A stretch of 64,000 bases of DNA from a phage: NCBI GenBank assembly GCA_029945195.1, contig GCA_029945195.1_4117.1; one strand, given 5' to 3'. Both the position numbers and the translations under genes were made by a program. Positions 13,823 through 49,110 of the stretch are shown one piece after another; position 1 is the stretch's first letter; every line of letters starts with the position of its first letter. Under the pieces are notes generated by a model, which was not told the origin of the DNA, searched no databases, and worked only from the letters and a program-made list of their open reading frames with translations.

Positions 13823-13851
13823 TTGACATAGAAAAAGTAATTATGTATAAT
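13823..13851 (+). promoter_or_regulatory. Sigma70-like promoter (TTGACA, 17-nt spacer, TG-n-TATAAT)
   Basis: Perfect -35 and -10 hexamers with extended -10 TG. Confidence 0.5.
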
Positions 13852-13852
13852 C

Positions 13853-13883
13853 AGAGAACTTCATATGGAGTTCTCTTTTTTTA
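13853..13883 (+). terminator. Rho-independent terminator hairpin
   Basis: 8-bp stem AGAGAACT/AGTTCTCT followed by a T7 run. Confidence 0.6.
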
Positions 13884-13895
13884 TAAGGTGATAAA

Positions 13896-16470: not shown

Positions 16471-16490
16471 TGGGACATTATATGTTCCAA

Positions 16491-16499
16491 TGATATAAT
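16491..16499 (+). promoter_or_regulatory. Extended -10 promoter element TGATATAAT
   Basis: Same 9-mer recurs at 27590, 31191, 43534 and 46603 in intergenic positions. Confidence 0.4.
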
Positions 16500-16770
16500 G
16501 TATATAGAAAATGACAACGGACATTGAAAAATGGACACTGAGAACCTACTTCTCTTGAAAATGTAAAGGATAGATGAGCTTTACCGTTGTAGCGAACAGC
16601 AGAAGAAACCTGTTAGAGTACTGGCATTCAAACAAACACGATGTAAGACCACGAATCACGGCGACACGGCTGTATAAAGAACTCCGATAAGCATACAGAG
16701 AGTTCCTAGATAGATGTATAAGGTTCGCACCTTACCAGATTTGCTAAGGGAGTTCAAGGATAGCGGACGC

Positions 16771-16806
16771 AATTTTTACAAGAAAGTTGCGTCCAAAATT
16801 TGAGAA
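16771..16806 (+). repeat. Direct repeat copy A (AATTTTTACAAGAAAGTTGCGTCCAAAATTTGAGAA)
   Basis: About 85% identical to copy B; the flanking GGACGCAA...TTGCGTCC is a perfect 8-bp inverted repeat. Confidence 0.6.
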
Positions 16807-16920
16807 CAAGTACTACTTTGATCGAATAGAGTTAGTACTGAGTGCTGTTGATGAAAAGACCAGCGACCGTTGCATATGACTGCGATAGAGAGAAACCGAG
16901 CAACCCGCTTTCGCTCTCTA

Positions 16921-34899: not shown

Positions 34900-34906
34900 A
34901 ACACTA

Positions 34907-34932
34907 AGGGAACCTTTTGGTTCCCTTTTTTA
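34907..34932 (+). terminator. Rho-independent terminator
   Basis: Stem AGGGAACC/GGTTCCCT with loop TTTT, then T6. Confidence 0.65.
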
Positions 34933-35295
34933 TTGATTAAAATTAAATACCTTTATATTGATGTTATAAAGGAACATTATGGATATGGAAGAAATACTAA
35001 AAAAAAACAATACAAGATGTCAGTAAAATAGTTTTAACTCAGTTGGAATCAGTACACATACTAAATATATTTTTAAAAAATTTGGAAGATTGTCGGTATA
35101 ATTGAAAAATACGAAGTATACACAAATGGAAAATGGTCTATATCAGTAAACTATATTGACCACACTAAACGAAAAAGATACTTATATTGTGTTAATATTA
35201 ATTGGTTCCCTGTTGATGACACTTTAGTTAATTAAAAATATACTTCCAGATAGATAAATAATATAAAGATGTCATTCCATAATAGGAGAATATAA

Positions 35296-41636: not shown

Positions 41637-42617
41637 ATGGCTAAAAAAATTAATGAAGCACAAGTTAAAATCGATATCGCAGGTTTAGAATCTGATGATT
41701 TGGAAACTCTATCACGTATGTTAGCTCTTGCTGGTCAAGCTGAACGTCAAGACCCAGTAGTTGCTGCTCCAGTACCATCTATGGGGTCTATGACTCCATC
41801 TCTTCCACCTATTGCTCCACTAGATCTCGATTCTATTGGTGCTGAAGAAGAAATTGGTGGAATTGAAACTTCAGTTGAAGACCCACTAGCAGCGGCAGTT
41901 GATGATCTTTCCGCTGATGTTGGTGATTTTGGTGCTGACACAGATGAAGTTAGTATGGATGCTGAATTTTCAGAACCAGGTGTAGAAGGTGAAGAAGATT
42001 TTTCTCTTGACCTTAGTGGTCAACCTCAACTAGAATCAGTTGAAGAAGACGATGAGGAAGAAGAAGAAATTATTGAAGAAGAATTCGATTTTAGTCGTAT
42101 GCTATCTCTTGCTGGTATTAACGAAGAAGAAGACGAAGATTTTTCAGTAGAGGGTAATCCTGCTACCGATAAAGAAATGAAAGATACCCAATTTCTACCA
42201 GATCTAAGTATCTCTGAAGATGAAGAACCATCTAACAGTACTGATTATGGTCCATATGAAACAGAAGCTGATGCCGTTCGTGATGGTCAACTAAAGACTA
42301 ATGGTGTTGAAGGTGATCATTTTGTTGTAATTGCAAAAGGCAATCAATTTTATTGGAGACGTGTTGTAGATGAAGATCTTGACAATCGTCCAGAACCTGA
42401 GTATTATGATAATGAAGGGAACGAAAATCGTGTTCATAAATTTGAACCAAAATTCCCAGGCACTGCATTAGGAGATAACCCACTAAATGTTAATGAAAGT
42501 GAAGAAGATGATTCACCTGAAGGTAACATTGACTTGGAAGATGATTCTGATGAAGAAGTAGAAGATATTTTTGAAAGTCTCCAAGAAAAATACAAGAAAT
42601 TTTTAGGAGACAAATAA
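41637..42617 (+). CDS. Hyperacidic protein (D/E-rich; repeated SRML(A/S)LAG motif)
   Basis: Long D/E runs such as EEDDEEEEEIIEEEFDF; the SRML.LAG motif occurs twice. Confidence 0.55.
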   Translation: MAKKINEAQVKIDIAGLESDDLETLSRMLALAGQAERQDPVVAAPVPSMGSMTPSLPPIAPLDLDSIGAEEEIGGIETSVEDPLAAAVDDLSADVGDFGADTDEVSMDAEFSEPGVEGEEDFSLDLSGQPQLESVEEDDEEEEEIIEEEFDFSRMLSLAGINEEEDEDFSVEGNPATDKEMKDTQFLPDLSISEDEEPSNSTDYGPYETEADAVRDGQLKTNGVEGDHFVVIAKGNQFYWRRVVDEDLDNRPEPEYYDNEGNENRVHKFEPKFPGTALGDNPLNVNESEEDDSPEGNIDLEDDSDEEVEDIFESLQEKYKKFLGDK

Positions 42618-42618
42618 T

Positions 42619-43014
42619 ATGCAATATAATTATCGTGAACTAGTTGAAGCGTTAGACGAAATTACCGGAAGAGATGAAGACGAAAGTTTTTCAGTTGAAG
42701 TTGAATCCGATGTTGTAGCAGTTGATGTTCTTAAGGATATTACCAAATGTCTTATTGATATTGTTGATAAGATTAAATCTGGTGAAGACCAAAAAGAAAT
42801 TGTAGATAAACTACAAAAAGCCTGTGACATTTTGTCTGACATTCGATATAATGATGAAAGTACTGAAGTTGCTGATGAAGAAGTGTTGGAAGCCATTGCA
42901 GGTTGTTTTGGAACTGAAGGTATGGGACCATCAATTGACAAAGAAGGCGTACAACACTATAATGAGCCTGGTGCACCATCTTATGCTGCACGTCAAGGTT
43001 TTGTTGGAGACTAA
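42619..43014 (+). CDS. Acidic hypothetical protein
   Basis: AGGAG SD; D/E-rich. Confidence 0.5.
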   Translation: MQYNYRELVEALDEITGRDEDESFSVEVESDVVAVDVLKDITKCLIDIVDKIKSGEDQKEIVDKLQKACDILSDIRYNDESTEVADEEVLEAIAGCFGTEGMGPSIDKEGVQHYNEPGAPSYAARQGFVGD

Positions 43015-43017
43015 TAT

Positions 43018-43398
43018 ATGTTTCCAGAACCATCACATAACAGTACTGAATATCAAAATAATGTACTTTCCAAAGTTAGGGAAGTACATGAATCAGATTC
43101 AGAAATAACAGACCGTATGCTTCTGATGTCAATTTTTGAAAATTTCAGAACTGGCGGTGGTTTACGTCTTAGCAAGTTTGGGTATGGAATTTGTAAAGAA
43201 AATAATCTTTATGAATTTACCAAAATCCCCTTGCAAAGAGAATTTAAAAGTTCTATAATGTTTACATCACTTGACAGAATATGTACTTCACCTTATTATG
43301 TTGAAGGTCAGTACATATATCTGACAGATGCAATGATAATAACTGAATTAACATTGTGTTGTGATGATTTTAAACAGTTATTTTCTATTCATATGTAA
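43018..43398 (+). CDS. Hypothetical protein
   Basis: GGAGA SD, ATG. Confidence 0.5.
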   Translation: MFPEPSHNSTEYQNNVLSKVREVHESDSEITDRMLLMSIFENFRTGGGLRLSKFGYGICKENNLYEFTKIPLQREFKSSIMFTSLDRICTSPYYVEGQYIYLTDAMIITELTLCCDDFKQLFSIHM

Positions 43399-43421
43399 GA
43401 AAAATGAATTAAAAAAAAATG

Positions 43422-43449
43422 TTGACAAGATAGAATGATGTGATACAAT
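43422..43449 (+). promoter_or_regulatory. Sigma70-like promoter P1 (TTGACA, 16 nt, TG-n-TACAAT)
   Basis: Consensus -35, extended -10. Confidence 0.5.
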
Positions 43450-43514
43450 AAGCATCAGACATAAAGTTTTCAAGCGACACAAGATGTGAGTTTGAAAAAA
43501 AAAGAAAAAAAGTG

Positions 43515-43542
43515 ATTGACAAGTTGAAACGATGTGATATAA
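43515..43542 (+). promoter_or_regulatory. Sigma70-like promoter P2 (TTGACA, 16 nt, TG-n-TATAAT)
   Basis: Near-duplicate of P1 (TTGACAAG.T.GAA..GATGTGATA.AAT). Confidence 0.55.
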
Positions 43543-43642
43543 TGTTCACATCAAGACAGCAAAGAGATTTACCTTTTAAACACACGGATGATTCATGAAG
43601 TAACAAAGGAACTGATAAGTTAAATTATTTTAACACAGTTCC

Positions 43643-43671
43643 TTTACTTTTGCCCACGGATTGGCTATAAT
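43643..43671 (+). promoter_or_regulatory. Promoter P3 (TTTACT -35-like, 17 nt, TATAAT)
   Basis: T4-early-like -35 variant with a consensus -10, about 40 nt before the ATPase start. Confidence 0.4.
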
Positions 43672-43712
43672 AGAAACTTAAACGATTTTATCCAACAAAA
43701 GGAAATATATAC

Positions 43713-45038
43713 ATGACTACTCAAAACGATATCCTGAACGTTAAACTGACTCCAAAGAAAGCTAAAGAAGCAATGGCACTAGCTGACATGATTCAAGATA
43801 GCCTGATGATTTGGGGTAGCCCAGGTATCGGTAAGTCTGCAATCGCTCGTCAATACGCTGATGAAAATTACCCACTGCGTAAAGATAACGTAGCTAAAAT
43901 CGAGTTCATGAAACAACAAATCGAAGCTGACCCTGAAAATGCTGATCAGCTACGCCGTGAACTGGCTGCATTTGAAGCAAAACTAATCGACCAAGATACT
44001 AACTTTATCGATTTCCGTTTGTCTCAAATCGAACCAAGTGACCTTCGCGGTATTCCAGTACCAGAGAAGCTTTTCCGTAAAACTGACGGTTCTCTTCTGA
44101 AAGAATCTGAGCTTGCCGAAGCAAAAGATTATGTAGCTGAAACTGCGGTAGTATGGGCTGCACCTAAAGTTCTGAAATTGTCCGAAGATTGGAAAGGTGT
44201 TATTCTGTTTGACGAAATTAACTCTGCAATGCCTATTGTTCAGGCAGCGTCTTATCAGCTAATCCTCGACCGTTGTGTTGGTGAGATGAAGCTACCTAAG
44301 ACTGCACTGATTCTTGCAGCAGGTAACCGTGAAACTGATGGTGGTGTAACTTTCTCTCTTGCTACACCACTGCGTGACCGTATGACTCACATTGAGATGA
44401 TTCCTTATCATCAAGATTGGATTAACGATTATGCGATTGCAAAACGTTTGAACCCAGCAACTGTTGCGTTCATCAACAACACTGGTTCTAAGTACTTTAA
44501 CACACTTAGTCCACAAGATCCTTCTCACAGTGGTGGTACTTCTCCACGTTCATGGGAAGCAGTAGCACGCTACGAAGATCTCAAGAAAACTAAGACAATT
44601 GATAAAGAAGTGTTCCGTGCAATGATTGCTGGTCGTGTTGGTGAAGGTGTTGCAACTGAATACATTGAGTACGTTGAGAACGTTGCTAAACTACCAGATA
44701 CTATGTCTATTCTGTCTGGTGAAATCAAAGAAATCGACGCAACGCTGGATATTTCTGCGAACTACTTTATCACTCTGAACTTGGTTTATAAAATTATCGA
44801 CCTGTTCAATGAGAAGCAAGAACAACGTCTACCAGTGGAAGAATGGGGTAAACTGTGTAACAACTTCATCACCTTCCTAGACCATAACTTCTCTGCAACT
44901 CAAGCAGAACTGGCAGTACTGGCAATTCGTACCATCACGCTTCATAAGGTTGCGATTTCCATTAAAGATGTACCAGCGTTTAAAGATTTCATCGCTAAGT
45001 ACTCTGATCTTGTACGTAAAGCACGCTCTCTTGGCTAA
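43713..45038 (+). CDS. MoxR/CobS-like AAA+ ATPase
   Basis: Walker A GSPGIGKS and Walker B ILFDEINSA; codon usage visibly shifted to CTG/CGT/GGT/ATC relative to neighbours. Confidence 0.7.
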   Translation: MTTQNDILNVKLTPKKAKEAMALADMIQDSLMIWGSPGIGKSAIARQYADENYPLRKDNVAKIEFMKQQIEADPENADQLRRELAAFEAKLIDQDTNFIDFRLSQIEPSDLRGIPVPEKLFRKTDGSLLKESELAEAKDYVAETAVVWAAPKVLKLSEDWKGVILFDEINSAMPIVQAASYQLILDRCVGEMKLPKTALILAAGNRETDGGVTFSLATPLRDRMTHIEMIPYHQDWINDYAIAKRLNPATVAFINNTGSKYFNTLSPQDPSHSGGTSPRSWEAVARYEDLKKTKTIDKEVFRAMIAGRVGEGVATEYIEYVENVAKLPDTMSILSGEIKEIDATLDISANYFITLNLVYKIIDLFNEKQEQRLPVEEWGKLCNNFITFLDHNFSATQAELAVLAIRTITLHKVAISIKDVPAFKDFIAKYSDLVRKARSLG

Positions 45039-45112
45039 TTAACAAAGAGTTGTTGACAAGAAGGATGCCTAATGGTATCCTTCTTTTATCTTAACTAAAC
45101 GAGGAAATATAC

Positions 45113-46537
45113 ATGTCAGATAACAAATCTACTTCAAGATTCAATGAAGTATCTCCGGCACTCCAGAAAGAATGTCAAGAACGTCTGGTTCTGGCTCGTA
45201 CATCTTTGATGTTAACTGCACCATTCTTTGGTGTACTCGCTTCACGTTTACGTCCAGTTCCTAATAATACATGGTGTCGTACTCTAGCAGTGGATGGTAA
45301 ACATCTATTCTACAACGTAGAATTTGTAATGGGCATTCAAGACCCATCTAAAAAGAAAGAATATGAAGAAGCTATTCGTGAAAAGCACCCTGAAGTTACA
45401 GACGAACAATTAAAAGAAATGACTGAAGGTTTGACTGATGAAAACCTTGTTGCTGTAATTTGTCATGAAATTCTACACTGTGCTTACGATCACTTCCTTC
45501 GTCGTGGTATGCGTGATCCACAACGTTATAACCGTGCAGCGGATTATGCCATTAACCAAATCATCGTTCGTGAGAAAATTGGGAAAATCCAAAGTTCATG
45601 GTTGTATGATAAAAAATATGAAGGCATGACCGCAGAAGAGATTTACATTCTTCTTGAAGAAGAAGAACAAAAAGAAGATGGTGAAGGTGAAGGTCAACCA
45701 CAAAGTGGCGGCGGTGAAGGTGAAGGTAAAAATCGCGGTACTTTTGGCGATATTAAAGATGGTAAGGGTAAACCAAAAGGTACTACCATTGACCAGCATG
45801 ACGTTCCACAAGAAGGTCAAGAGGGTGGTTCAAGTGAACAGCAAAAACGTGATTACATGGATGATTTCAAAACAGCAATGATGAATGCTGCTCGTGCAGG
45901 TGGTACACCAGCAGAAATCGCTCGTATGATTAACAACTTTAAAGAACCAAAGATTGACTGGCGTTCAAAACTTCAACGTACACTTCGTAGTTGGTTGAAG
46001 TCTGATGCAACATATCAAAATCCGAATCGTCGTTCTTGGGGTGCAGGTTTTGGTTCTAATGGCTCATTCTATGGTAATCCAATTTACCCAGGGATGAAAC
46101 CAGATGATGATATTGATATTGCGATTGCACTAGATGCTTCTGGGTCTATTTCTGAAGATATGCTTCGTGATTTCATTAGTGAAGTTCTTGGCATCACTAA
46201 ACAATTCAAACAGTTTAAGATTCGTATCATGACTTTTGATACTGAAGTTTATACTGTAAAGGATTACAAAACTGGCGAAGAACGTAAGATTCTGGAATAT
46301 CCAGTAAAAGGTGGTGGTGGTACTGACTTTGAAGCAGTATGGGTTCATATGAAGAACGACAACTATAAGCCTAAACAGCTTGTAATGTTTACTGATGGTG
46401 AACCGTGGCAGTCATGGGGTGATCCAAACTACTGTAAAACACTGTTCGTGATTCACAGTAACCCAAATAAAGTTGCACCATTTGGTGAGACTGTACACTA
46501 CGAATATGAAGCTGATAAAAAGCGTCAACGTAGTTAA
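45113..46537 (+). CDS. VWA-domain protein with N-terminal HExxH metallopeptidase-like motif (CobT-like partner of the ATPase)
   Basis: HEILHCAYDH motif; MIDAS-like DIAIALDASGSIS; Gly-rich acidic linker; follows the ATPase. Confidence 0.6.
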   Translation: MSDNKSTSRFNEVSPALQKECQERLVLARTSLMLTAPFFGVLASRLRPVPNNTWCRTLAVDGKHLFYNVEFVMGIQDPSKKKEYEEAIREKHPEVTDEQLKEMTEGLTDENLVAVICHEILHCAYDHFLRRGMRDPQRYNRAADYAINQIIVREKIGKIQSSWLYDKKYEGMTAEEIYILLEEEEQKEDGEGEGQPQSGGGEGEGKNRGTFGDIKDGKGKPKGTTIDQHDVPQEGQEGGSSEQQKRDYMDDFKTAMMNAARAGGTPAEIARMINNFKEPKIDWRSKLQRTLRSWLKSDATYQNPNRRSWGAGFGSNGSFYGNPIYPGMKPDDDIDIAIALDASGSISEDMLRDFISEVLGITKQFKQFKIRIMTFDTEVYTVKDYKTGEERKILEYPVKGGGGTDFEAVWVHMKNDNYKPKQLVMFTDGEPWQSWGDPNYCKTLFVIHSNPNKVAPFGETVHYEYEADKKRQRS

Positions 46538-46549
46538 GTACTAAATAAT

Positions 46550-46579
46550 GAGAACGGAAAATTCCGTTCTCTTCTTTTA
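46550..46579 (+). terminator. Rho-independent terminator
   Basis: Stem GAGAACGG/CCGTTCTC then TTCTTTT. Confidence 0.6.
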
Positions 46580-46602
46580 TAAGTGGGACAACTTATAAAA
46601 AT

Positions 46603-46611
46603 ATGATATAA
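46603..46611 (+). promoter_or_regulatory. Extended -10 promoter element TGATATAAT
   Basis: Recurrent 9-mer after the terminator. Confidence 0.35.
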
Positions 46612-46646
46612 TAGTTAATGTACCAATATACATGGAGAGTATTAAA

Positions 46647-46925
46647 ATGGAACAAGAAAATAATCAAATTCAACTAACCCTTCTAGACCTAATCAATGCT
46701 GCAAAAATCATGGAAGCTGCTGTTGCACGAAACACCTTTAAAGTTGAAGAACTTGTTGAGGTTGCTCCAGTTGTATCTAAATTTGTTTCTTTTGCAAATG
46801 TAGCTCTTGAAGATATTAAAGCACAAGAAGATGCAGCTAAAGAAGAAGCTGAATCACAAGAAGATGCAGCTAAAGAAGAAGCTGAATCACAAGATAGTGA
46901 AACTCAAGAAGATAAAGGAGAATAA
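46647..46925 (+). CDS. Small acidic protein with a tandemly duplicated 11-aa unit
   Basis: ATG 46647 with GGAGAG SD; a perfect 33-bp tandem duplication encodes QEDAAKEEAES twice. Confidence 0.5.
   Translation: MEQENNQIQLTLLDLINAAKIMEAAVARNTFKVEELVEVAPVVSKFVSFANVALEDIKAQEDAAKEEAESQEDAAKEEAESQDSETQEDKGE
46824..46889 (+). repeat. Perfect 33-bp tandem duplication (2 copies, in-frame)
   Basis: CAAGAAGATGCAGCTAAAGAAGAAGCTGAATCA repeated head-to-tail. Confidence 0.8.
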
Positions 46926-46927
46926 TT

Positions 46928-47584
46928 ATGGCAGCTATTCGTCATGTTGGTGTAATGCGTAATACAGGTTCTCGTGTTTTTGTTGTTTGGCGTTCACTAC
47001 CAGATGATCCTGAACACTGCCTTATCGTTTATCGTGATTCACTACCAGAAGCATATGTACACGCAGTAACTGATATTGTTATGGGTCATGGTCAATCTAA
47101 TATTGATTTGTGGGAAGTAATGCATAAAATTGGTTATCTCGATGGACGCAAAATGCTAGATGTTCTACACAACATGCAGCATCTACGTCGCGTTCGTACT
47201 TGTGATATTGATATGCACACTGGTGGTAATAATAAAATTTCTCTTGATGTTCTAAACAAAGCATTAGATGAAAATCAAGCGAAAGTACAAGAAGATGGTA
47301 AAGTAAAAGACTTTAACCCATTCAATCCACAAGAAGCAGACACTAAAGTAGAAGAAGCTACTATTGTAGAACAACTTCTCACTGATGCACAAAAATATGA
47401 AAAACTGGCTAAAGAACATTATGAACGTGCATACAATTTAGAGCCAAGCTTGCGTCCGCAAACACAAGTTGTTGAACAACCGAAAGATAGTAAAACAATT
47501 TATCTAGAAATTCCAGAAGGTATTTCACAGACTAAAGCTATTGAGAAAGTAAAACAACTATTTGCAGAACGTAAAGCAAAATAA
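46928..47584 (+). CDS. Hypothetical protein
   Basis: AAAGGAG SD; CGT-rich codon usage like the ATPase block. Confidence 0.55.
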   Translation: MAAIRHVGVMRNTGSRVFVVWRSLPDDPEHCLIVYRDSLPEAYVHAVTDIVMGHGQSNIDLWEVMHKIGYLDGRKMLDVLHNMQHLRRVRTCDIDMHTGGNNKISLDVLNKALDENQAKVQEDGKVKDFNPFNPQEADTKVEEATIVEQLLTDAQKYEKLAKEHYERAYNLEPSLRPQTQVVEQPKDSKTIYLEIPEGISQTKAIEKVKQLFAERKAK

Positions 47585-47587
47585 AAT

Positions 47588-48181
47588 ATGAAAAAGAATG
47601 AATTAGATGAAGCAATTAAAGGTTTATCTAATGTATGTTTTAGTGGCGGGGCAGCAGGTGCTGACCGCCTTTTTTCTATCTATGCAAAAAATAATGGATT
47701 TGAAGTTATTAATTTTTCATTCAAAGGTCATGAGCATAGTGTAGATGAAAGTACTATATTAGAAATACCATCCAATATTCTATCTGATATTTCTATATTA
47801 AATCAACTAAACATTGCATGTTACTCGTTGCAGCGAAAAGTACCAAAACCTGGTTCTTATGTTTACAACTTACTTGCAAGGAATAGTTATCAGATACTTA
47901 ATACAGAAAGAATATATTGTATTGCAAATATCACATCACCAACTAAGGTAAGTGGTGGTACTGCATGGGCAGTACAGATGTATATGGATTCAGTTGAAAA
48001 TCCTGAAATTTATTGTTATGATATGAATTCACGTTCAGTATTTTATTTCGATACAGTACTGAAAGAGTTCACACAAACATTCGTCGTTCCAGCACCACAT
48101 GGTAACTGGACTGGTATTGGTTCACGCAATGCCACCGAAAAACATATGGAACATTTTATTACATTTTTCAAGGAAGAATAA
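47588..48181 (+). CDS. Rossmann-like protein with DprA/SLOG-like Gly-rich motif (putative nucleotide-binding)
   Basis: CFSGGAAGADRLFSIYA resembles the SG.A.G.D motif of DprA/LOG-type folds. Confidence 0.3.
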   Translation: MKKNELDEAIKGLSNVCFSGGAAGADRLFSIYAKNNGFEVINFSFKGHEHSVDESTILEIPSNILSDISILNQLNIACYSLQRKVPKPGSYVYNLLARNSYQILNTERIYCIANITSPTKVSGGTAWAVQMYMDSVENPEIYCYDMNSRSVFYFDTVLKEFTQTFVVPAPHGNWTGIGSRNATEKHMEHFITFFKEE

Positions 48182-49110
48182 TGAAACAACTACAAGAACT
48201 ATATCAAAAAATTCTAGATGAAGGCGTAGAAAGCGTTGACCGTACTGGTGTTGGAACAATCAAACTTATCGGTCAACAAATGCGTTTTGACCTTAAAGAT
48301 GGTTTCCCAGCAGTGACGACAAAACGTCTAGCTTGGAAAGCAATGACTTCAGAATTACTATGGTTTATTGAAGGTTCCCATGATGAGCGTCGCCTTTGTG
48401 AAATTTTGCATGGAACTCGTGATACAGAAAAGAAAACTATTTGGACAGATAATTACCTAAATCAAGGCGTTGCTCTTGGTTATACTGATGGTGAGTTAGG
48501 TCCAGTGTATGGTAAGCAATGGCGTGAATGGGAAGATTATAAATTTAGTTCCAGTACTGAAGAAATTCAAGAATTAAAAGATAAAGGATACAAAGTTATC
48601 GATTATACTGGTTCACATGGTGTTGTTATGAAACGTACAACTGACCAATTACAAGAACTAATCAAAGGTATAAAGTCCGATCCATATGGCCGTCGCCACA
48701 TTCTAAGTGCATGGAACGTTGGTGAGCTTGATGATATGACGTTACCACCTTGTCATAGCTTTGTGCAATTTTGTGTAGTGCAAGGAAAACTAAGCTGTAT
48801 TCTGCATCAACGCTCCGCTGATCTATTTTTAGGAGTTCCATTTAATATCAGTAGTTACTCACTACTAACTCATATGATTGCACAAATTACTGGTTTAGAT
48901 GTTGGTGAATTTATTTGGAATGGTGGTGATTGTCACATTTATAAAAACCACGTTGAACAAGTAAAAGAACAACTACAGCGAAAACCTCGTGAATTACCTG
49001 AATTGTGGCTTGATCCTACAATTACTAATATTGAAGATTTCACTATGGATTCTTTTAAATTAGTGAATTACAACCCAATGCCAACAATTAAAGCACCTAT
49101 GGCTGTATAA
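48181..49110 (+). CDS. thyA: Thymidylate synthase
   Basis: TS motifs: RTGVGT, GPVYGKQWR, RRHILSAWNVGELD, LPPCH catalytic Cys, HQRSADLFLGVPFNI. Confidence 0.9.
   Translation: MKQLQELYQKILDEGVESVDRTGVGTIKLIGQQMRFDLKDGFPAVTTKRLAWKAMTSELLWFIEGSHDERRLCEILHGTRDTEKKTIWTDNYLNQGVALGYTDGELGPVYGKQWREWEDYKFSSSTEEIQELKDKGYKVIDYTGSHGVVMKRTTDQLQELIKGIKSDPYGRRHILSAWNVGELDDMTLPPCHSFVQFCVVQGKLSCILHQRSADLFLGVPFNISSYSLLTHMIAQITGLDVGEFIWNGGDCHIYKNHVEQVKEQLQRKPRELPELWLDPTITNIEDFTMDSFKLVNYNPMPTIKAPMAV

Follow-up and report, generated by a model that had tools for sequence, protein, structure and literature searches.

The DNA analysed here, in the following called the window, is a 64,000 nt stretch of a phage contig (GCA_029945195.1_4117.1), and all positions refer to it. 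It harbours a pair of adjacent genes, the first of which codes for a MoxR-class AAA+ ATPase. The second codes for a partner protein in which, judged by its conserved residues, a zincin-type HExxH metallopeptidase domain of predicted peptidase activity is fused to a VWA domain with a MIDAS (metal ion-dependent adhesion site). Tentatively, we prefer the reading, at somewhat less than even confidence, that both proteins form a module of ATPase and adaptor which remodels or cleaves a target, likely a host protein of defence or takeover, and not an essential intermediate of virion assembly. The genes and their signature motifs are located as follows:

43713..45038, + strand: MoxR-class AAA+ ATPase gene, open reading frame (ORF) from ATG to stop, 441 amino acids (aa); N4 gp24 family, phrog_1297
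43699..43703, + strand: Shine-Dalgarno sequence AAGGA, 9 nt 5' of the ATPase ATG
43815-43838 and 44211-44216, + strand: Walker A and Walker B (D167, E168) of the ATPase
45113..46537, + strand: metallopeptidase-VWA partner gene, ATG-to-stop ORF, 474 aa; N4 gp25 family, phrog_1314
45464-45478 and 46133-46147, + strand: HExxH and MIDAS DxSxS of the partner

Membership in the MoxR class (helix-2-insert clade) was judged by the motifs Walker A GxxGxGK[ST], Walker B hhhhDE, a sensor 1 Asn, an Arg finger and an 'SPR' in the lid. The ATPase possesses all of these, including GSPGIGKS at residues 35-42 (Walker A), ILFDE at 164-168 (Walker B) and the sensor-2 SPR of the lid. Among 48 ATPase homologues (32-87% identity) the residues G38, K41, S42, E168, N205, R223 and P278-R279 are invariant, and D167 of Walker B is kept in at least 90% of them. 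The AlphaFold2 model (predicted local distance difference test score 86) consists of an AAA+ core, a long beta-hairpin insert (residues 114-149), the SPR lid and a C-terminal helical bundle; the hairpin lies in helix 2, and the model is structurally similar to MoxR, dynein or midasin modules. The match to phrog_1297 ('ATPase') has an E value of 3e-107. In Pfam only the generic AAA model passes, and this barely (21.3 bits, cutoff 21.2), while AAA_3 (PF07726) stays under its cutoff with E = 0.0072 and the threshold of AAA_5 (PF07728) is not reached either. Within the family, AAA_3 is found at E <= 1e-3 in 14 of the 48 homologues, AAA_5 in 16 and bpMoxR in three, these matches coming from the more distant members. 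Searches of the PDB with single sequences and with profiles returned for both proteins only P-loop or marginal integrin matches. The motifs, the beta-hairpin insert, the adjacent VWA partner and the match to phrog_1297 thus bear out the MoxR-like AAA+ ATPase of the original prediction, which had been made from the sequence without database searches. Its further label, CobS-like, finds no support: no CobS, CobT or CbbQ model matches, and for neither gene product was CobS_N, CobT, CbbQ_C or an NCBIfam equivalog found at E <= 0.01 (Pfam) or 0.1 (NCBIfam).

The predicted fusion of an HExxH motif to a MIDAS-containing VWA domain in the partner was likewise confirmed. It matches Pfam DUF2201_N, a putative metallopeptidase domain, at 2e-35 (123.2 bits, cutoff 23.2), the VWA-like DUF2201 at 7e-21 (75.1 bits, cutoff 26.4) and phrog_1314 at 7e-128. 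The HExxH motif corresponds to H118-E119-x-x-H122. None of its three residues varies among 52 partner homologues, and H127 is kept in at least 90% of them. The MIDAS is complete (D341-x-S343-x-S345, T404 and D428), located on a VWA fold and invariant in the same 52 sequences. Two fold searches with the model of the whole partner gave VWA domains as sole matches and did not recover a solved peptidase fold for the N-terminal domain.

Because of the 99.8% identity of the 3.2-kb region to Escherichia phage PBECO4, we assign the window to Asteriusvirus; it is a piece of such a Rak2-like jumbo myovirus of about 350 kb. The region is equally close to phage SHEFM2K, and 99.2% identical to 121Q, phAPEC6, G17 and Sharanji. 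The gene pair is already known. In the phAPEC6 record it is labelled gp265c, 'ATPase; MoxR ATPase', and gp264c, 'N4 gp25-like protein', and it has been described in group 2.2 jumbo phages, including Rak2-like ones such as Munch (Iyer et al. 2021, PMC7824862). Other records name the partner 'Zn-dependent hydrolase', 'VWA domain-containing protein' or 'HNH endonuclease'; the latter label is wrong and was inherited from phrog_1314. The classification of the genes is left unchanged here.

Genetic data are available for one member of the family only, the Vequintavirus pair. In phage Bas54, the genes bas54_0063 (MoxR) and bas54_0055 (putative metallopeptidase) are non-essential on Escherichia coli K-12, with a transposon saturation of 0.94 each. 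On the clinical strain CFE311 insertions in bas54_0063 are lost (log2 fold change -7.23, q = 0) and those in bas54_0055 are depleted (log2 fold change -2.20, q = 0.009). Furthermore, bas54_0063 is needed against a predicted two-gene defence system, DS-28 (all from the HIDEN-SEQ preprint, 10.1101/2025.11.20.689424). Both proteins are full-length homologues of the ATPase and the partner (BLASTP 7e-33 and 6e-53, checked through the identically numbered genes of the sister phages Bas56 and Bas48), and the Vequintavirus metallopeptidase has DUF2201_N and DUF2201, HExxH and MIDAS in common with the partner. Since the genes are dispensable in K-12 and required in a clinical strain, we favour a role in counter-defence over one in virion assembly. 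By analogy with Bas54, and considering the host-type promoters and host-matched codons described below, the target is more likely a host factor than a virion precursor. Scans of the pair with PADLOC and NCBIfam models gave no meaningful match. The counter-defence phenotype is known from the Vequintavirus homologues of 24-28% identity.

The deviating codon usage noted in the original prediction could be quantified. The codon adaptation index (CAI), with 24 ribosomal-protein genes, tufA and fusA of E. coli K-12 as reference, is 0.528 for the ATPase gene and 0.484 for the partner gene, compared to a mean of 0.330 (standard deviation 0.066) for 71 window ORFs. These are the two top values among the window ORFs of more than 100 aa. 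In a sample of about 90 phage genes, made up of these 71 ORFs and 19 phAPEC6 genes from outside the window, the ATPase gene has the highest CAI and exceeds even the major capsid gene (0.444 in phAPEC6, where portal, DNA polymerase and baseplate wedge reach 0.306, 0.383 and 0.306; the tail sheath gene of the window has 0.366). The codons TTA, AGA, ATA and GGA do not occur in the ATPase gene, whereas elsewhere in the window they account for 36%, 26%, 18% and 20% of their families. As the capsid gene does, it favours AAC, TTC, TAC, CGT, GGT, ACT and TCT; ATC, which is raised in the capsid gene, too, makes up 46% versus 15% in the rest of the window.

Two explanations had been offered for this bias, very high expression and recent acquisition. 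An origin by recent horizontal transfer could account for the GC content of 0.42 over positions 44001-45000, compared to about 0.34 for the window, and for the GC content at third codon positions of 0.34 in the ATPase gene against a window mean of 0.22. However, the latter value is not donor-like for enterobacteria, and the preferred codons are largely T-ending (CGT, GGT, ACT, TCT), as in the phage's own capsid gene. The same gene is found in the same synteny, with the same three ORFs upstream of the pair, in Asteriusvirus, Alcyoneusvirus, Munch, Mimasvirus and Eneladusvirus, and the ATPase orthologues of ph0011, BF17, JNE01, A4 and Muenster (75-92% DNA identity) have CAI values of 0.48-0.57, Munch being lower with 0.34. 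Because synteny and codon bias are conserved across genera, we reject recent acquisition; it has hardly any probability left and is effectively refuted. The codon bias thus reflects, as far as can be read from these comparisons, translational selection and not a foreign base composition. Since the codon deviation points toward translational selection, high expression is plausible.

The two biased genes of one phage differ in their choice of Leu codons. In the phAPEC6 capsid gene gp225c (L011:15123-16298) CTA, although rare in E. coli, represents 83% of the Leu codons, and in the ATPase gene CTG takes 41% with TTA missing. A phage-encoded tRNA-Leu as the cause was considered and discarded: Sharanji (99% identical) does not possess one, and there are no tRNA genes in the window.

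The pair had been placed behind three tandem promoters. The candidate signals 5' of the ATPase gene are:

43401..43449, + strand: promoter P1, A-tract (UP-like), TTGACA 43422-43427, 16-nt spacer, TG-extended TACAAT 43444-43449, 11/12 match
43495..43543, + strand: promoter P2, A-tract, TTGACA 43516-43521, 16-nt spacer, TG-extended TATAAT 43538-43543, 12/12 match
43643..43671, + strand: P3, weak sigma70-like site, TTTACT-N17-TATAAT, 10/12 match
43531..43552, no strand: palindrome GATGTGA-N8-TCACATC, extending over the -10 box of P2 and the predicted start, retained in the consensus of Asteriusvirus

P1 and P2 are the two copies of a 49-nt direct repeat with 73% identity. They are separated by 94 nt, and an A-tract lies upstream in either copy (21-22 A or T among the 25 upstream positions). 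One would expect 4.6 +/- 2.2 sites with a match of at least 11/12 from shuffled sequences; the window contains 13, all of them on the + strand. Six of these 13 fall within 42379-43543, and only P1 and P2 are intergenic and have both the TG and an A/T-rich region upstream. Asteriusvirus relatives with 81-92% DNA identity retain the two promoters. P1 is found in five Asteriusvirus lineages as well as in Klebsiella phage Muenster, there with TATAAT as -10 box, and at the place equivalent to P2 the phage Munch carries GGGACA-N17-TATAAT together with an upstream TG (TGTGATATAAT). Judged by this conservation and by their number beyond chance, P1 and P2 are real near-consensus sigma70 promoters. Here the original prediction was exact for P1 (43422-43449), correct for the existence of P2 and wrong by one base in its coordinates (43516-43543, not 43515-43542). 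The palindrome is a possible operator.

The third promoter is a different case. Weak matches of at least 9/12 occur 69 times in the window versus 65.8 expected, so that a 10/12 site such as P3 is at chance level. Its -35 box overlaps the 3' arm and the T-tract of the hairpin T0 described below, and its -10 box is conserved only within Asteriusvirus, being TATCAT in Muenster and lost in Munch. P3 therefore is a doubtful promoter, positioned 3' of a terminator-like hairpin, and of the three tandem promoters the two duplicated strong ones remain.

Some further observations concern promoters in the window. The remaining four of the six clustered sites lie on the + strand inside the three ORFs upstream of the pair, at 42379 (11/12), 42824 (11/12), 42935 (12/12) and 43271 (11/12), which together with P1 and P2 places six of the 13 best sites within 1.2 kb. 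A motif (T)GGGACA-N16-17-ATATAAT/TATAAT with preceding TG recurs at 16472-16505, 27571-27600 and 46585-46612 and in Munch (L008:1439-1468); with its GGGACA -35 box it resembles a second promoter class, and in Munch it sits where P2 is. The 'TGAAACG' middle-promoter motif of CBB is present inside the P2 spacer, but with the spacing of a promoter it was not seen anywhere in the window, and this reading was dropped. The sequence of a T4-type late promoter, TATAAATA, was looked for upstream of the pair and is missing from the whole window: on both strands the octamer was found 0 times, compared to 10.4 +/- 3.1 expected, and TATAAAT occurs 32 times, never followed by A. Structural genes abound in the window, and among the genes of the phage is one for a gp55-like late sigma factor (phAPEC6 gp237c). 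A reading of TTTTGCTTA 3' of T0 as a MotA box was given up, as this sequence occurs only in Muenster and Munch.

Between the promoters and the ATPase gene, and again after each of the two genes, terminator-like elements are found, which the original prediction had not noted:

43550..43652, + strand: leader, predicted ~100 nt, between the inferred P2 start and the T0 T-tract, the latter included; ACGGAT box at 43584-43589
43605..43652, + strand: T0, terminator-like hairpin, arms 43605-43614 / 43636-43645, inner 6-bp stem, then ACTTTTG
43656..43662, + strand: A(C/T)GGATT box, shortly 3' of the T0 T-tract in 10 of 12 phages; ACGGAAA in Muenster, none there in EJP2
45058..45085, + strand: T1, intrinsic terminator-like hairpin, 12 bp, 4-nt loop, TTATCTT tail, between ATPase and partner gene
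46550..46571, no strand: T2, bidirectional terminator-like hairpin, closing the two-gene unit

The arms of T0 form a perfect 10-bp inverted repeat between P2 and P3. For comparison, the regions upstream of the ATPase gene were taken from 12 Rak2-like phages of at least four named genera, namely Asteriusvirus (with EJP2), Alcyoneusvirus (Muenster), Munch, Mimasvirus (CBB, GAP32) and Eneladusvirus (fHe-Yen9-03, pEa_SNUABM_50). A T0 hairpin is present in all 12, in every one followed by a T-tract. Its stem exists in the four variants AAAGGAACT/AGTTCCTTT, AAGGCACT/AGTGCCTT, AAAGCACT/AGTGCTTT and AGGACT/AGTCCT, which are separated by two compensatory double changes and one paired deletion. This covariation was read from folds of the individual sequences and a pattern match, as a MAFFT alignment misplaced the hairpin in Muenster and Munch. 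The distance from the end of T0 to the ATG is 57-67 nt in 10 of the 12 phages, 237 nt in EJP2 and, with the annotated start, 79 nt in fHe-Yen9-03. On the 5' side of the hairpin all 12 have an A-tract and then an extended -10 promoter, e.g. AAAAAAATTGTGGTATAATAG in CBB and GAP32. Since promoter and hairpin are present in all of them, the conserved unit consists of promoter, short leader, terminator-like hairpin and gene.

With a covarying stem containing G and C, a U-tract and a promoter upstream, T0 has the features of a terminator or attenuator; termination itself is predicted. It may terminate or attenuate transcription, or stabilise the RNA. RNA folding gave a z-score of -2.5 when the leader was started at P2 and of -3.9 when it was started at P1, and an Rfam scan of 42500-47000 yielded no credible family. 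A leader peptide of 11 codons, ATGATTCATGAAGTAACAAAGGAACTGATAAGTTAA, reaching into the T0 stem was rejected, as the ORF is cut to 3 codons in A4 and Muenster.

In Asteriusvirus the promoter is duplicated, and in EJP2 a 12/12 promoter has been relocated to the 3' side of the hairpin. The cassette of this phage (L012:512-832) is rearranged into an extended -10 promoter with the conserved hairpin, a second hairpin, an A-tract and TTGACA-N17-TATAAT (12/12), the latter directly 5' of the ATPase gene with no hairpin between. The records of Muenster and Munch show an annotated terminator at the place equivalent to T1. Overlapping T1, at 45053-45081, there is TTGACA-N17-TATCCT with TG (10/12), either a weak internal promoter or a coincidence. 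An arrangement like that of the ATPase locus was seen once more in the window, at 13823-13895, with TTGACA-N17-TATAAT (12/12), only a few bases later AGAGAACTTCATATGGAGTTCTC and a T-run, then the start of an ORF of 139 aa. No published paper on an Asteriusvirus transcriptome was found. The homologue goes unmentioned in the PA5oct RNA-seq paper, the ATPase and partner genes are not dealt with in the RaK2 paper, and the CRISPRi-ART paper contains no data on the pair.

How the two proteins could act is suggested by better known couples. A hexamer of NorQ is bound by a single NorD molecule, the VWA domain of which closes the pore like a plug, and the target needs to have carboxylates (PMC9976466). 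If the pair works like this couple and like CbbQ-CbbO, RavA-ViaA and midasin, its ATPase would form a hexameric ring, on which one partner molecule would dock as adaptor. The MIDAS of the latter would grip a carboxylate of the target protein, ATP hydrolysis would pull on or remodel this target, and the fused HExxH peptidase would then cleave it. Strong host-type promoters, an in-line leader hairpin, codon adaptation and T1 together predict fast and abundant synthesis of the ATPase with the adaptor being substoichiometric, and an excess of ring over adaptor would agree with T1 lying between the two genes and with the partner's lower CAI.

The likeness to these couples has its limits. The adaptors of NorQ-NorD, CbbQ-CbbO and RavA-ViaA are without the N-terminal HExxH domain of the partner, and these systems mature or reactivate enzymes, while no client enzyme is evident for the window pair. 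Midasin (Rea1/Mdn1), a eukaryotic protein, consists of one giant polypeptide in which six AAA modules are fused, and it is without a peptidase. Cyanophages carry CobS/CobT-like pairs, which are like the window pair a phage-borne AAA+ ATPase with a VWA protein, but their models do not match it and CobT is without an HExxH domain. The closest comparison is N4, in which gp24 (AAA+ ATPase) and gp25 (vWFA) represent the same two families in the same gene order, a homology stated also in the GenBank notes of Muenster, K64-1 and phAPEC6; N4-like phages reach 28-33% tblastn identity to the window pair. Yet the jumbo-phage ATPase is about 80 aa longer, with a longer beta-hairpin insert and, compared to N4-like and Vequintavirus proteins, an insertion of 38 aa forming two helices after the Walker A helix. 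A helical hairpin specific to this lineage occupies residues 56-90. The jumbo-phage partner has, unlike that of N4, a disordered Gly/Glu/Lys-rich linker of roughly 55 aa. Furthermore, N4 transcribes the pair by its own RNA polymerase II, whereas the promoters in the window are of the sigma70 type.

A number of points weigh against the preferred reading, a target in the host. The Vequintavirus homologues are only 24-28% identical, and their genes are about 3.6 kb apart on divergent strands. The timing of expression is deduced from promoter sequence only, and these phages themselves encode an RpoD-like sigma factor; therefore, sigma70-like boxes are no proof of early expression. Moreover, T0 could terminate most transcripts from P1 and P2. 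In purified phAPEC6 virions the ATPase gp265c was detected by mass spectrometry with 6 peptides and 19% coverage, and its upstream neighbours gp267c, gp268c, gp270c and gp273c, as well as the head completion protein gp272c, are virion-associated; these two findings are in keeping with assembly. Finally, gp24 and gp25 are two of only 14 core genes in N4-like phages, where they belong to the middle transcripts (PMC4193335; PMC2784036), a status unusual for an accessory anti-defence gene.

This core status and the detection in virions keep alive the model of a machine for virion assembly or maturation, in which MoxR and VWA proteins fold structural proteins and the peptidase processes them. Assembly with peptidolytic processing has been proposed for group 2.2 jumbo phages by analogy with p618 and p892 of Acidianus two-tailed virus (ATV; Iyer et al. 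2021, PMC7824862). These are a viral pair of MoxR and VWA proteins and the cited precedent for such a role; however, ATV is an archaeal virus, its adaptor is without a peptidase and acts in extracellular tail development, and it is likened here by description only. The universal presence of the pair in Rak2-like and N4-like phages fits assembly, as does a capsid-like codon adaptation, to be expected for a bulk protein. On the other hand, both homologues are dispensable for plaques of Bas54 on K-12. In the phAPEC6 virions thymidylate synthase was found and the partner gp264c was not, so that the mass spectrometric detection may reflect abundance and not packaging. The ATPase gene has consensus sigma70-type promoters of its own and is not read only together with the structural genes, the N4 pair is transcribed with the middle genes, and the choice of CTG for Leu differs from CTA in the capsid gene. 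The original prediction had itself named classification as a known virion assembly component as an outcome that would speak against it. Instead, both proteins fall into the PHROG category 'other', and no structural family was matched in Pfam, PHROGs or NCBIfam, which leaves the detection in phAPEC6 virions as the one positive hint of such a component. We consider assembly unlikely, if worth keeping in mind. The former statement that the role of the pair in a phage is not obvious overlooks that the literature has an assembly proposal and counter-defence genetics from Vequintavirus.

The pair could also be an activase or a chaperone for cofactor insertion into a phage or host enzyme, as are NorQD, CbbQO, CoxDE and CobST, with the peptidase removing a propeptide or inhibitor. 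This is the classical role of MoxR/VWA couples, and genes of nucleotide metabolism, for thymidylate synthase and a DprA/SLOG-like protein, are located just downstream in the window. A chromosomal pair in Chromatiaceae lies among cytochrome c and SoxA/TsdA genes, beside an M48-TPR peptidase. Against it, NorD-type models failed to match just as those of CobS, CobT and CbbQ_C did, no candidate client gene is conserved with the pair across Rak2-like, N4-like and rV5-like phages, and the strain-specific need in Bas54 is hard to square with a housekeeping client. We regard this role as quite improbable. Very improbable, in our view, is a remodeller of replication or transcription complexes in the middle phase, e.g. 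one stripping or cleaving a DNA-bound host or phage protein. The N4-like gp24 and gp25 genes are indeed situated among genes for RNA polymerase II and replication, as middle transcripts, and in a prophage-like locus of Brucella the pair is near DNA ligase and sliding-clamp genes. Such evidence is purely positional, though, and the pair has no DNA-binding domain detectable with Pfam or PHROGs and is dispensable in Bas54 on K-12.

A tblastn search turned up the ATPase family in 816 records of phages, compared to 685 for the partner. They span Rak2-like and PA5oct-like jumbo phages, Vequintavirinae, N4-like Schitoviridae, Aeromonas phages and a cyanophage. In the window the partner gene starts 75 nt downstream of the ATPase gene. 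A scan of bacterial genomes gave 38 loci, and in 33 out of 33 with enough upstream flank the ATPase gene is upstream of the partner gene on the same strand. In the Chromatiaceae chromosome mentioned above (L037:4932-8823) the pair is followed by the gene for the M48-TPR peptidase, and similar chromosomal pairs exist in further sulfur-oxidising Gammaproteobacteria (L038-L046). From its gene context the Chromatiaceae locus is clearly cellular and points to a branch of the family whose role may be another one. The locus with ligase and clamp genes, from Brucella pecoris, resembles phage-derived DNA.

Downstream of the pair, an acidic protein of 97 aa (46632-46925, phrog_13789) contains the perfect tandem repeat QEDAAKEEAES x2, which gives rise to paired hairpin calls at 46834-46884 on the minus strand. 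At 47588-48181 follows a DprA-like/SLOG (YspA-related) protein (phrog_768, 1e-26), its gene being directly 5' of thymidylate synthase (48181-49110) with a one-base overlap. SLOG domains often bind nucleotide-derived ligands. Elsewhere, three stretches of the window have no ATG-started ORF of at least 50 aa: 16471-16831 (361 nt), 23535-24136 (602 nt) and 34900-35295 (396 nt). The second one probably holds a gene starting with TTG or GTG; the other two, with promoter-like boxes, may be non-coding.

Pairs of the gp24/gp25 type occur in hundreds of sequenced phages and belong to the core of the N4-like and Rak2-like ones. Most of what the original prediction observed holds, and its interpretation is right in part. 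What is added here is modest: the codon adaptation has been quantified, recent acquisition is rejected, and a leader hairpin cassette with covariation is described. The latter is a small new regulatory observation for this phage group. A CAI exceeding even the capsid gene's, host-type promoters that have no stronger ones beside them in 64 kb and a design graded from ATPase to adaptor are consistent with a need for fast and bulk supply. These three features and the Bas54 genetics make counter-defence concrete enough for testing. Two linked readings go further and are possible, if on the doubtful side, namely that the pair is an early, mass-produced, ATP-driven 'grab-and-cut' protease, which strips and cleaves a host target of immunity or takeover, and that the cassette is an undescribed regulatory RNA of Rak2-like phages. 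If true, the cassette RNA would be an attenuator gating read-through into the ATPase gene or else an independent small RNA, about 60-200 nt long and ending in a terminator tail, and the protease would make the widespread N4 gp24/gp25 family a general counter-defence machine.

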